Shown: piece by piece, positions 42,001-45,000 of the stretch | How positions within the stretch are numbered: the first letter of the stretch is position 1 | Layout of the letters: every line of letters starts with the position of its first letter | DNA from: an uncultured Dehalococcoidia bacterium | Lineage (GTDB): Bacteria; Chloroflexota; Dehalococcoidia; Lucifugimonadales; UBA3495 | DNA: 64,000 bases | Assembly (NCBI GenBank): GCA_950072105.1 | Contig: CATMOE010000001.1 | Coordinates: 154,096-218,095, forward strand | Reading direction: 5' to 3' | Program-made: the position numbers

Positions 42001-45000
42001 ACTGGCGCCATATTTGGCGGAACCTGATGCGCGGTTGGCGGCCCTATACGCCTGGCAAGCCTGCGCCGGCATCTACTCCTGGTACTCTGTAGTCCCTCCA
42101 ATGGACACTACAGGCCTGGAAGCGCCCTCAGAAGACCGTGAGGATCTCATCGACCGGGCGGTGGCAGCCGGTGGCGCCCACTCCATCAAGTTCACTGAAG
42201 CCTGCTTGCGGGAATACACCATCAATCCCAATCCCGTGTACCTAGTGGCAGCCCGCGATGCCCCGGAGCGGGTTGGGCCGATCTAGTAACTTGAGAAATC
42301 CTCGCTATTTTCCCCAGATCAGATGATAACGGCAGGAGGTAGCTCTTTATGAGCTTGAGAGCTAAAGCGGCAGTGGTCGGTTTCGCCGAGCTGCCAACCC
42401 AACGCACCTACCCCGGCAGGACGACCAATTCCCTCTTGGCGGAGGCCTGCCGCATGGCCATCGCCGATGCCGGGTTGACAAAGGCGGACATTGACGGGCT
42501 GATCACCCGGGGAACCGACGTTACCCCCGTGGAACTGGGCGAATACATGGGTATGCCATTGAGCTTCAGCGAGGGCATTACCCAACACGGCTCCAGCGGC
42601 GCCCACTCTTTGGCACTAGCGGCGTCCTCGATCAATTCCGGATTGGCCACCACGGTGATCTGCACGTTCGGTGGGACAAGAGACCCGGCCATCGGCGGGC
42701 TCGCCCCCGGACAGGTTCGGGGGACTCCACCGGCTACCAAGGGTACCGAGTTCGAGGCCCCCTTCGGTATGGCCCCCGGCGCGAACACGGGTTACGGCCT
42801 GATGAAACGGCGGCACATGTACGAGTTCGGCACCACCCAAGAGCAGTTCGCCAAGATGGCGGTGAACCAGCGGTTCAATGCCCTGACCAACCCCAACGCC
42901 GTGTTTCACGACCAACCCATCACGGTGGACGACGTGTTGACTTCCCGGATGGTCAACGACCTTTTGCACCTGTTGGAGTGCGTGATGCCCTGCGCCGGGG
43001 CCGCGGCCTGCATCGTTACGTCGGCGGAACGGGCCAAGACCTTGCCCAATCCTCCGGGGTATATCCTGGGGGCCGCCGCCGGAGTGAGCGGCCACGACAC
43101 GATCTGGCAGGCGGACCGGATAACCACGTCACCGGTGGTGATATCCGCCCGCAAAGCGTTGGAGATGTCAGGCTACAGCCCCAAGGACATTGAGTTCGCT
43201 GAATTCTATGATTGATACACCATCCTTGAGGCCGTGTGCCTCGAAGATGCCGGATTCTGTGAAAAGGGCGAGATCGGACCCTTCTTCGACGAAGTAGACA
43301 CAACCTATAAGGGTACATTCCCTATAAATACCGACGGGGGGCAGCTATCGGGCGGGCAGCCCGTGGGCGGCGCCGGCGGCTTCCGCCACGTGATCGAGGG
43401 CGTCCGCCAGATCATGGGCCGGGCGGATGACCGCCAAGTCGCCAAGCACGACCTTTCCATGGTCAATGGTTGAGGCGGCACCGGGAGCGTGATGTGCACG
43501 CTCATATTGGGGACCGAAGCGACTACTTAACGAAGCCTAATCCGTTCGTCCTGAGCTTGTCGAAGGACCAGCTAAGCGGGTGGTTCGACAGGCTCACCAC
43601 GAACGGAATGAGAAAGGAATGACGAGGCAGGAATATGACCACGGAATACCAGAAACCTTTACCCAGGCCGCTTAGTCCCGGGCTGACCAAACCCTTCTGG
43701 GACGCGGCCAAGCGTCACGAGTTGGTGATGCCCCGTTGCCAGAAATGCGACCACTTCTTTTTCTACCCCAGGGAGGAGTGTCCCAAATGCCTCTCCCCGG
43801 ACATCCAGTGGGCTAGTGTGAGCGGCCGCGGACGGCTGCATACTTATACCGTCGTCCACCAACCGGTGAACCCCGCTTTCCGCGAGGATGCTCCCCACGT
43901 GTACTCGGTGATTCAATTGGACGAGGGTCCCCGCATGATCTCCAACATGGTGGAATGCGATTTAGACGACCTGAGAGTCGATATGCCGGTGGTGGCAGTC
44001 TATGATGATGTGACACCGGATTGGACTCTGGTAAAATTCAAACCGGCATGACATTCGGCAAACTCGGGTAAGGGTTGAGGTAGGGAGGGCAATGACGTTA
44101 GATGGCAGCCCGTCACGGCGGGTCGGGGAGGTGGTTGAGGCTAACTCGGCATCGTTCACTGCCCAATGCTACACTCTCTACGACGCTCCACCGCTGGGCT
44201 GCATCGTGCGCGCCGGTTCTGCGGAGATCTACGGAGTGGTCTGCCGGGTGGCAACCGAGCCCTTGGACTCCTCCAGACCGGTGTTGGCTCGCGGGGAGTC
44301 TGCCGAAACCGAAGAAGAGGTCTTTCGGGACAATCCCCAACTTACCCGTCTGCTGACCTCCCGATTCGAGGCGTTGATCGCCGGTCACCGGGAGGGTGAT
44401 GCCGATAGGCATTACCTGCCTGCTTTACCGCCCCCGGTACACTCTTTCGTGTACACCTGCAGCCCCCAAGAGGTGGCCCGCTTTACCTCCCGATTGGACT
44501 TGCTGCGCCTGTTACTCAACTCCGGGCTCGCTATTGCCGATGAAGTCCTTGGGGCCTGCCTGCGCGGGGCGGCGGTGGCGCACGATGATTCAGAAGCTTT
44601 TCTGCTGAGAGCCGGAAAGGCCCTGGCCGCCGAGTTGGCCGGAGATTTGCCCAGGCTGAATTCCATCCTCAAGAAGGTGTCCCCATGACCGGTGGCCCGA
44701 ACCAGAACGGAGATATTCCCAGTCCCGCCGCGGACGCTGATATGGATTCCCAGGGCGCCGCATTGGGATTGGTTGTAGACGGATCGCTGAGTCAAGGGGT
44801 AGAAGTGCGCCTCGACCCAGCCACCTCAGTTGAGGAGGTCAAAGTCGGGGCCTTCGTAACGATCAAGGGCGATAACAACAATTTCTTCGGCGTGGTCACC
44901 GACGTCAGCCTGGGAACCACCGACCCCAGGTTGAAGCACACCCCTCCCCAGGTGGACAACCCGTTCATCGCCCAGGTAATGTCCGGCACGGTGGCCTACG

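Follow-up and report, generated by a model that had tools for sequence, protein, structure and literature searches.

Positions 42349–43530 on the forward strand of the window, the 64-kb stretch of DNA from an uncultured Dehalococcoidia bacterium that was analyzed here, are best read as one gene for a 393-residue thiolase-fold selenoprotein, which contains two selenocysteine (Sec) residues, U289 and U375, and functions as a DUF35-partnered retro-aldolase. The probability of this reading is roughly 70%. The protein is a member of the Sal/SLP branch, that is, of the thiolase-like proteins without a nucleophilic cysteine. Each of the two in-frame UGA codons would be read as Sec by means of its own SECIS-type hairpin, beginning 10–11 nt downstream, and the aldolase would act jointly with the DUF35 zinc-ribbon/OB protein encoded downstream.

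Gene structure and the two in-frame UGA codons

A ribosome-binding site, AGGAGG, can be read from the sequence at 42334–42339 (forward strand, as are all features described here), and the ATG follows after 9 nt. As the initial annotation had recognized, the gene is interrupted by a TGA: an ORF of 288 aa (42349–43215) ends in this codon (43213–43215; U289, in Y-D-U-Y) and is followed by a second ORF in the same frame. The motif given for the site, EFYD-U-YTILEAVCLE, is present. That annotation had also placed the end of the gene at 43473, for a product of 374 aa; the supposed stop at 43471–43473 (U375, in V-N-G-U-G-G) is instead a second conserved TGA, and the frame continues beyond both TGAs to a TAA at 43528–43530, yielding 393 aa.

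The 18-codon tail between the second TGA and the TAA, GGTGSVMCTLILGTEATT (43474–43527), encodes the final beta-strand of the thiolase fold. When the tail is part of the query, the match to Pfam Thiolase_C_1 covers 4–144 of 144 positions and that to NF004811 covers 6–383 of 384. In the AlphaFold model of the 393-aa protein (mean pLDDT 91.7), the tail strand, residues 381–388, pairs with strand 369–376, and it is with these 18 extra residues that the modeled thiolase fold is complete. Among orthologous loci, the mean pairwise difference at first, second and third codon positions is 0.26/0.18/0.48 in the tail and 0.27/0.28/0.58 in the gene body, and it is 0.74/0.72/0.72 in the stretch past the final stop. 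The weight of variation on the third position indicates that the tail evolves as coding sequence.

These observations bear directly on the version in which U289 is the only Sec, the protein has 374 residues and the TGA at 43471 is a true stop. Gene callers do end the protein at this codon, as do 78 of the best 120 public clusters, with filed lengths of 359–390 aa, and no homologue has Cys at column 375. However, the 17–18 codons after the second TGA stay in frame in 16 of 16 loci, with stops that are all TAA or TAG, and vary mainly at third positions; the tail forms the last strand of the fold (pLDDT ~95) and holds the Gly equivalent to Gly391 of the Comamonas retro-aldolase CtSal; a covarying hairpin follows the second TGA; and four relatives with Asn or Ser at column 375 carry on into the same tail. 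This single-Sec, 374-residue version is, therefore, very unlikely.

Conservation of the two codons was assessed in 17 orthologous loci of 50–99% identity, one of which is cut by a contig end before column 375. Column 289 is TGA in 13 of the 17 and Cys (TGT or TGC) in the other four, and column 375 is TGA in all 16 loci where it is present. Public protein clusters bear the mark of the same codons. Among the best 120, 38 end exactly at the first TGA, 78 have Cys at 289 and end exactly at the second TGA, and 4 are full length, so that 116 end at one TGA or the other. The earlier statement that no Cys-containing orthologue exists thus gives way to Cys at column 289 in four loci and 78 clusters. 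Likewise, it had been stated that every match in the GTDB family carries exactly one in-frame TGA. When the family search was recounted with the full-length 393-aa query, 8 of 11 matches at ≥52% identity (this gene included) had two; the remaining three are cut by a contig end, broken or equipped with Cys at the first site.

The initial annotation had called the role of Sec unclear. For the first site, the Cys orthologues remove this doubt; for the second, the doubt returns in stronger form. No Cys counterpart occurs at column 375 among the loci, clusters and structures compared. The non-Sec residues found there are Asn (P0040 and the 10 loci of group B with the column in view), Ser (P0058) and Thr (CtSal). 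Having only non-Cys counterparts is unusual for a functional Sec, and the second Sec thus represents an unusual evolutionary case. Moreover, the tree shows three or more replacements of Sec by Asn or Ser within the Sec375 clade, which suggests that the residue may not be indispensable. At the same time, among the copies read, all those whose first site is dead, with Ala or Pro in column 289, have Asn at 375, a pairing that ties residue 375 to catalysis.

Sec insertion competes with termination, as is generally known, and the second UGA could accordingly be a leaky or regulated stop, chiefly a selenium-dependent switch and less a catalytic residue, from which both 374-residue and, with the supply of selenium, full-length chains are made. 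The replacements by Asn or Ser in the clade would fit such a switch in that they suggest a replaceable side chain. Against it, the shorter chain would lack both a core strand (in the model) and the oxyanion-hole Gly (as identified in PMC12329534), the codon is TGA in all 16 loci and is the exact end of 78 cluster representatives, and the consistent Asn375 of the Ala/Pro289 copies links the residue to catalysis. We regard a switch as unlikely and the decoding of both UGAs as Sec as the better reading.

Hairpins and selenocysteine machinery

Both TGAs are followed, beginning 10–11 nt downstream, by a 7-bp stem with a 5-nt G/U-rich loop. The hairpin that had been described after the first TGA, CUUGAGGC-CGUGU-GCCUCGAAG, is indeed there: hairpin 1 spans 43221–43249, with its stem at 43226–43232/43238–43244, the loop CGUGU at 43233–43237 and a lower stem of 4 bp. 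Hairpin 2, GAGCGUG-AUGUG-CACGCUC, lies at 43485–43503 with its loop at 43492–43496. The presence of hairpin 1 follows the codon. It occurs in 13 of 13 TGA forms (a perfect 7-bp stem in nine, one mismatch in four) and in none of the four Cys forms; no covariation was detected for it in the orthologue alignment. For hairpin 2, four of the seven pairs show changes on both sides, and its covariation score of 0.225 (shuffled mean, 0.106) was reached by none of 500 shuffles. Following the second UGA, a perfect hairpin of at least 6 bp with a 5-nt loop starts 10–15 nt downstream in 13 of 16 sequences; some of the others have only an interrupted hairpin (L059–L061), and in L055 the register is shifted. 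The folding energies are unexceptional, with tool z-scores of −1.8 and −2.0 for the two hairpins and, for those of the orthologues against mononucleotide shuffles, z mostly from −0.4 to −2. An Rfam scan of 43150–43600 with E up to 10 returned no SECIS family and only three matches at chance level.

The genome encodes SelB (351 bits), SelA (550 bits) and SelD (385 bits), the selD gene containing one TGA of its own, and a tRNA-Sec with anticodon tca is present. Of 100 genomes of the GTDB family, 93 have a SelB match above the cut-off, and a relative in which no selB was found has an aldolase copy with two frameshifts. From these features we infer that Sec is inserted at both UGAs. A second selenoprotein gene, Prx-like with the motif F-W-U-V-Y-C, lies 3 kb from the aldolase gene.

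TGA terminates 21 other ORFs of at least 90 aa in the 64-kb window and is therefore a normal stop in this genome, which rules out reassignment of the codon. More broadly, a pseudogene, an assembly error or a TGA read as an ordinary amino acid can practically be discounted. What might suggest such an origin is the presence of two stops within one gene and the broken copies of two relatives (L032 and L034), but the same two codons turn up across 16 loci of many genera, 116 cluster representatives end at one or the other, and the Sec machinery is complete alongside the ORFs that end normally in TGA. Four metatranscriptome runs have contigs that cover the gene, two of them bridging each UGA; given that DNA can be carried over into RNA libraries, this counts as weak evidence. 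In single runs, some parts of the gene are without RNA-contig cover, and nothing is inferred from this.

Active site, gene neighborhood and proposed mechanism

The best solved match is CtSal (9MYR_A), at a phmmer E-value of 1.1e-80, a Foldseek TM of 0.90 and 40% identity. In the alignment, U289 corresponds to Cys304, Y287 to Tyr302, Q332 to Gln347, Q337 to Gln352 and G81 to Gly89; Q332, Q337 and G81 are invariant among 8 aligned orthologues. Y287-D-U289-Y290 is thus the Sal catalytic motif Y-D-C-Y with Sec in place of Cys. According to PMC12329534, Cys304 is catalytic, and the C304A, C304S and C304H variants of CtSal have undetectable activity; the same paper and PMC7682436 describe the xDCx-loop cysteine as an acid/base residue in SCP2-thiolases and TbSLP. 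The earlier assignment to the thiolase superfamily, with Sec taking the place of the HDCF-loop Cys, is strengthened by the Sec/Cys pairs at column 289. Of the oxyanion hole, CtSal Gly391 is kept as G377, two residues past U375, and CtSal Gln161 is not kept, the residue here being Ala145.

Two other assignments were rejected. A thiolase proper, whether classical or SCP2, does not fit, as there is no CxS Cys or GHP His, G81 and Q337 standing in their places. The steroid side-chain aldolase Ltp2 had been named as the nearest characterized relative; CtSal is nearer, and an Ltp2-type aldolase is rejected since the Ltp2 residues His296 and Tyr344 are not kept, aligning with U289 and Pro338, respectively.

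In another reading, the enzyme is not an aldolase, and one Sec acts as a nucleophile. Sec surpasses Cys both as a nucleophile and as a leaving group, and U375, from its computed place in the model, shares the beta-hairpin loop that carries the CxG cysteine of classical thiolases. U375 would then be the most likely nucleophile, forming an acyl-selenoester and restoring thiolase-type or acyl-transfer chemistry, as might also be suggested by the best NCBIfam names (acetyl-CoA acetyltransferase and thiolase) and by the missing counterpart of the aldolase oxyanion-hole residue Gln161. This function is nonetheless unlikely. All 44 relatives in the alignment have Gly81 at the nucleophile position, and the whole Y-D-C-Y group has Gln where the catalytic His would be. 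Furthermore, the NCBIfam thiolase models all score below their cut-offs (the best at 283 versus 421 bits), and the full Sal catalytic set is kept. Profile–profile alignment with 9 classical thiolases of relatives sets the CxG Cys at V372, which precedes U375 by three residues and is the point where the alignment ends; counting from the oxyanion-hole Gly, the position of this Cys would by analogy fall on U375 itself.

The DUF35 partner that had been noted after the gene lies at 43635–44051 as a free-standing gene, its product combining a Cys4 zinc ribbon with an OB fold. Of 27 loci tested, 26 have a DUF35 gene directly downstream, and the remaining one, L074, breaks off within the gene. CoA-transferases had been described as preceding the aldolase gene. 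There are two of these, of family III, one subunit A-like (38188–39516) and one subunit B-like (39513–40790), but they do not adjoin it; a SnoaL-like gene (40803–41204) and a questin-oxidase-like gene (41273–42286) intervene. In L028, L029 and L056, the gene for the subunit B-like CoA-transferase immediately precedes that for the aldolase; L030 and L031 also contain matches to it. Only the two nearest relatives have a full SnoaL-like gene beside the aldolase gene, the match in L030 being short and partial, and the same two are also the only ones in which the questin-oxidase-like gene lies beside it. No hydratase gene occurs in the operon of this locus, and crotonase-type hydratases are encoded near the aldolase gene in L033, L055, L059 and L070.

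With the Comamonas Sal mechanism taken as a template, we infer the following retro-aldol reaction. The substrate would be a 3-hydroxyacyl-CoA, the acyl-CoA probably being supplied by the two upstream family III CoA-transferases. Tyr287 would accept the proton of the beta-hydroxyl, and the bond between C-alpha and C-beta would be cleaved, releasing an aldehyde or a ketone and leaving the enolate of the acyl-CoA. Sec289, held by Gln332 and Gln337 where CtSal has Cys304, would then protonate this enolate. Sec375 is predicted to lie where the penultimate strand ends, two residues ahead of the Gly whose backbone NH, in Sal, contributes to the oxyanion hole. This would place it beside the thioester or enolate, where it probably serves as a second proton relay or as a redox partner of residue 289.

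An outside possibility is that the two seleniums form a new catalytic device, either through a Sec375 selenolate that attacks the substrate and yields an acyl-selenoester, which would amount to a thiolase reinvented without its cysteine, or through an Se–Se or Se–S bond in the active site that gates the reaction or participates in it. Neither chemistry is known from any thiolase-fold enzyme, and Sec375 would have arisen from Asn or Ser and not from Cys. A Sec in place of the acid/base Cys would also provide enzymologists with a naturally occurring Cys/Sec pair on which the Sal mechanism could be tested.

Distribution and comparison with known systems

Among 401 genomes sampled from the class, 62 carry the gene family, in up to four copies each, and on the best reading the two-Sec retro-aldolase is common in marine Dehalococcoidia and SAR202-type Chloroflexota. 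Public databases file the family as a "thiolase" or "acetyl-CoA acetyltransferase" of 288 or ~374 residues, and such shortened entries mean that gene calls and selenoprotein counts in these organisms are too low. The earlier claim that no thiolase-superfamily selenoprotein has been cataloged holds for the main texts of the 2026 review (PMC13188914) and of BSepDB (PMC13326102), neither of which names a thiolase-fold family. In addition, the text of one BSepDB supplement is without mention of thiolase, aldolase, PF22691 or DUF35, and the literature searched contained no report of a Sec-containing thiolase-fold protein; a study of new selenoprotein neighborhoods by Haft and Tolstoy, outside the scope of that search, may bear on the claim of novelty.

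The closest known system is CtSal, the bile-acid side-chain retro-aldolase of Comamonas testosteroni (PDB 9MYR), which, as described in PMC12329534, is likewise DUF35-partnered, through a domain of Shy. The two enzymes share the Y-D-C-Y motif, both Gln residues around the Cys and a Gly in place of the thiolase nucleophile. They differ in that Sec replaces Cys304, a second Sec stands at CtSal Thr389 and Ala replaces Gln161. While the DUF35 protein is separate here and has a Cys4 site, in the CtSal system it is, according to that paper, a Cys3His tail of the hydratase Shy. The hosts also differ, the present one belonging to a marine Chloroflexota lineage in which no steroid pathway is apparent.

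The steroid C3 side-chain aldolase complex TcLtp2-ChsH2(DUF35) (PDB 6OK1) resembles the present system in fold (Foldseek TM 0.89), in its DUF35 partner and in the first catalytic Tyr (Tyr294, equivalent to Y287). However, His296 is replaced by Sec and the general acid Tyr344 by Pro338, which makes Ltp2 more distant than CtSal. The second-best solved sequence match (E 1.6e-64) is 4U4E, a putative thiolase of Sphaerobacter thermophilus, also of the Chloroflexota. It likewise lacks the nucleophile; its residues at columns 289, 337 and 375 are Ser, His and Thr, respectively, and it falls in the Y-D-S/A-F group. Compared with the SCP2-thiolases (HDCF) and TbSLP (Y-D-C-F), Sec289 occupies the xDCx-loop Cys position. 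Unlike this protein, the SCP2-thiolases keep the nucleophilic Cys and the His. We know of no Sec-bearing SCP2-thiolase or TbSLP. A thiolase of Clostridium kluyveri was reportedly selenium-containing, owing to non-specific selenomethionine and not to UGA-coded Sec.

In known bacterial selenoenzymes, such as formate dehydrogenase and SelD, Sec stands in for a catalytic Cys and is encoded by a UGA with a SECIS hairpin downstream of it. The present gene is similar in its UGA and hairpin, in the accompanying Sec machinery and in the Sec/Cys pairs at the first site. It differs in having two Sec codons, each with its own hairpin, of which the second has Asn, Ser and Thr counterparts. To our knowledge, almost all known selenoenzymes are oxidoreductases, whereas the enzyme described here is predicted to be an acid-base C–C lyase; Sec as the general acid/base of such a lyase would widen the known roles of selenium.

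Two in-frame TGA codons in one gene

The open reading frame at 42349–43215 (+) encodes 288 aa and ends in TGA (43213–43215), beyond which in-frame coding sequence continues. When this codon is read as U, the product carries the motif EFYD-U-YTILEAVCLE, just as the initial annotation had it. The gene end proposed there, 43473, did not hold: the codon at 43471–43473 is a second TGA, after which the frame runs for 18 codons (GGTGSVMCTLILGTEATT) to a TAA at 43528–43530, giving a total of 393 residues. With this tail included, the protein matches Pfam Thiolase_C_1 over positions 4–144 of 144 and NCBIfam NF004811 over 6–383 of 384. 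In an AlphaFold model built from an alignment of 44 relatives (mean pLDDT 91.7, pTM 0.91), the tail forms a strand (381–388) that pairs with strand 369–376. The earlier observation is real, and there is more to it than was described: the gene probably (at roughly 70%) specifies a Sal-like enzyme of the thiolase fold that has a DUF35 partner and two selenocysteines coded by UGA, U289 and U375.

Read-through of the second TGA was assessed in 17 orthologous loci (50–99% identity), drawn from the GTDB family, one further region, and public MAGs that carry a SAR202, Chloroflexota or Dehalococcoidia label. All 16 loci that reach column 375 have TGA there and end in TAA or TAG 17–18 codons later; the 17th ends at a contig edge. 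Codon-position variation of the tail resembles that of coding sequence, with mean pairwise differences of 0.26/0.18/0.48 in the tail, 0.27/0.28/0.58 in the 40 codons upstream and 0.74/0.72/0.72 past the final stop. A search of 5.8 billion proteins gave clusters of which the best 120 were classed by end point: the first TGA is the exact end of 38 and the second that of 78, all of the latter with Cys at column 289. The other four are full length and carry the same tail behind Asn (three clusters) or Ser (one) at column 375. Every orthologue had been said to contain exactly one in-frame TGA, a count that arose because the query ended at the second; eight of the 11 family matches at ≥52% identity, the window's own included, contain two.

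Public databases name the truncated products "thiolase family protein" or "acetyl-CoA acetyltransferase". No thiolase, aldolase or lipid-transfer family is included in a review of the prokaryotic selenoproteome (PMC13188914) or in the BSepDB paper and one supplement (PMC13326102), and no report of a Sec-containing thiolase-fold protein was found in full-text searches, a scope that excludes the Haft and Tolstoy paper.

Hairpins and selenocysteine machinery

Each UGA is followed by a hairpin. Hairpin 1 (UUGAGGC-CGUGU-GCCUCGA, with a 4-bp lower stem) starts 13 nt after the U of the first UGA, and its stem is present in all 13 TGA forms (nine perfect, four with one mismatch) and absent from all four Cys forms, whose synonymous codons differ there; no covariation was detected in it among the orthologous loci. 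Hairpin 2 (GAGCGUG-AUGUG-CACGCUC) starts 14 nt after the U of the second UGA and does covary: in four of seven pairs both partners have changed, and none of 500 shuffles (mean score 0.106) reached its covariation score of 0.225. A perfect hairpin of at least 6 bp with a 5-nt loop follows the second site in 13 of 16 sequences; its register is shifted by 2 nt in locus L055, and the stem is interrupted in L059–L061. Folding energies of the single hairpins are unexceptional, and the region has no Rfam match.

The genome encodes SelB (351 bits), SelA (550 bits) and SelD (385 bits), the last with an in-frame TGA of its own, together with a tRNA-Sec (anticodon tca). TGA is also a normal stop in this genome, since it ends 21 other ORFs of ≥90 aa within the window. 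Across a sample of 100 genomes of the family, SelB exceeds its cut-off in 93; among the nine other genomes of this sample that carry an orthologue, it does so in seven. SelB was not found in the remaining two, G083 (90% complete), whose gene copy (locus L034, G083:C10) is broken by two frameshifts, and G090 (85% complete). Genome G019 also holds a broken copy (L032, G019:C16), cut off past residue 238. About 3 kb downstream of the aldolase gene lies a Prx-like (AhpC/TSA) gene (46472–46813 and upstream, −), which gene callers report as two ORFs, with an in-frame TGA (46811–46813) in the motif F-W-U-V-Y-C and a hairpin (GCAACU-GGUGG-AGUUGC) after it; the gene probably belongs to an already known family of U-x-x-C selenoproteins.

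Neighbourhood, expression and spread

A DUF35 gene lies directly downstream in 26 of 27 loci, the 27th (L074) ending within the gene; in the window its product is free-standing, a zinc-ribbon/OB protein of the Cys4 type. Upstream of the aldolase gene are two genes for family III CoA-transferases. A B-like CoA-transferase gene adjoins the aldolase gene in loci L028, L029 and L056, and L030 and L031 have further B-like matches; a short match to SnoaL is also seen in L030. The full SnoaL-like and questin-oxidase-like genes that lie here between transferases and aldolase recur only in the two nearest relatives. Crotonase-type hydratase genes occur nearby in four more distant loci; this operon has no hydratase gene.

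Between the aldolase and DUF35 genes is a 67-nt palindromic element (43541–43607, +; −45 kcal/mol, z −6.0). A genome-wide count of its first 15 bases, allowing ≤1 mismatch, gives 55, versus 1 for a reversed control, and over the element contig depth rises from ~10 to 190–830 with many loose ends in four metatranscriptome runs. The element is a dispersed repeat of the REP-like type. The DUF35 gene is directly followed by genes for a 198-aa protein without a family match and a HerA/DUF87-type ATPase (44092–46412, +); the two nearest relatives retain both genes, which probably have no connection with the operon. Elsewhere, 34499–36227 (−) carries another thiolase-like gene, of 406 aa and without a TGA, and a DUF35 gene that goes with it (166 aa); a B12-binding-domain protein (36357–37649) adjoins them. 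A fusion of a glutaredoxin domain with a pyridine nucleotide-disulphide oxidoreductase is encoded at 62635–63882 (+).

Six marine or vent metatranscriptome runs contain 30–44% of the stretch's sampled words. In the four runs examined, contigs bridge the first UGA (run X15 record 11, X16 record 22) and the second (X15 record 13, X19 record 29), which hints at expression, although RNA libraries can hold DNA.

Matches at E ≤1e-100 occur in 62 of 401 sampled genomes of the class (28 of 223 genera). By hand count, 52 of the 143 matches listed have two TGAs, 67 have one and 24 none, the TGA site being established for one of the single-TGA rows at ~49% identity. A FastTree phylogeny of 143 rows, using only columns of residues 1–286, combined 26 translated loci and proteins with 117 cluster representatives; all 120 clusters are included, P0040, P0058 and P0110 within the 26. 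A branch with support 97 separates the whole Sec375 group, 134 rows, from the Asn outgroup (such support values are less reliable at long branches). Each site requires at least four changes, between Sec and Cys at the first. One large clade with Sec at both columns comprises 45 rows (support 100), and Cys forms are basal in the tree.

Up to four copies per genome occur within one family. Genome G152 has a Cys289/Sec375 copy, two tandem copies with Sec at both columns, each followed by its own DUF35 gene (L148, G152:C1, 2667–6067), and a 46%-identical Cys289/Sec375 copy. The tandem aldolase-DUF35 array of G108 (L151, G108:C6, 1595–4961) holds a copy with both Sec residues and then one with Ala289 and Asn375, possibly a non-catalytic partner subunit.

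Catalytic residues and comparison with Sal

The closest solved structure is 9MYR chain A (phmmer E 1.1e-80; Foldseek TM 0.90, 40% identity), followed by Ltp2 (6OK1) and 4U4E. According to PMC12329534, 9MYR shows the Shy DUF35 domain in complex with CtSal, the Comamonas testosteroni retro-aldolase that acts on bile-acid side chains. The catalytic residues of CtSal are Tyr302 and Cys304 of a Y-D-C-Y motif, and activity is undetectable in C304A, C304S and C304H; the proposed role of Gln347 and Gln352 is to stabilise the thiolate, Gly89 occupies the position of the thiolase nucleophile, and the Gly391 NH and Gln161 form the oxyanion hole (PMC12329534). The Ltp2 signature, to which the protein had been assigned, is not kept: His296 of Ltp2 aligns with U289 and Tyr344 with Pro338. 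The thiolase signature is likewise lacking: the nucleophilic Cys is absent, Gln replaces the catalytic His, and every NCBIfam score falls short of its cut-off.

The second Sec is predicted to stand beside the oxyanion hole, at the end of the penultimate strand and just ahead of the C-terminal beta-hairpin turn in the AlphaFold model, with the oxyanion-hole Gly two residues on. In a profile-profile alignment, the Cys of the classical thiolase CxG motif falls three residues upstream of U375. Column 375 was compared among relatives with Y-D-C-Y and both Gln residues. The nearest outgroup (Binatia, "delta proteobacterium" and Acidimicrobiales MAGs, 43–49% identity) has Asn in the 10 loci with the column in view, as do the copies read in which the first site is dead (Ala289 in the G108 tandem copy; Pro289 in P0110 and P0111). 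No Cys counterpart was found among the outgroup loci, the best 120 clusters or the aligned relatives. Since most Y-D-C-Y relatives, like this protein, have Ala at the Gln161 position, residue 375, and with it the second Sec, may take over part of the oxyanion-hole role.

Aligned with CtSal, the protein retains Y287 (Tyr302), Q332 and Q337 (Gln347 and Gln352), G81 (Gly89) and G377 (Gly391), but differs in having A145 at Gln161, U375 at Thr389 and U289 at Cys304. From the last of these, the first Sec would replace a catalytic Cys that is experimentally essential in CtSal, at a position where Cys counterparts are abundant, and by analogy the enzyme may share the aldolase mechanism.
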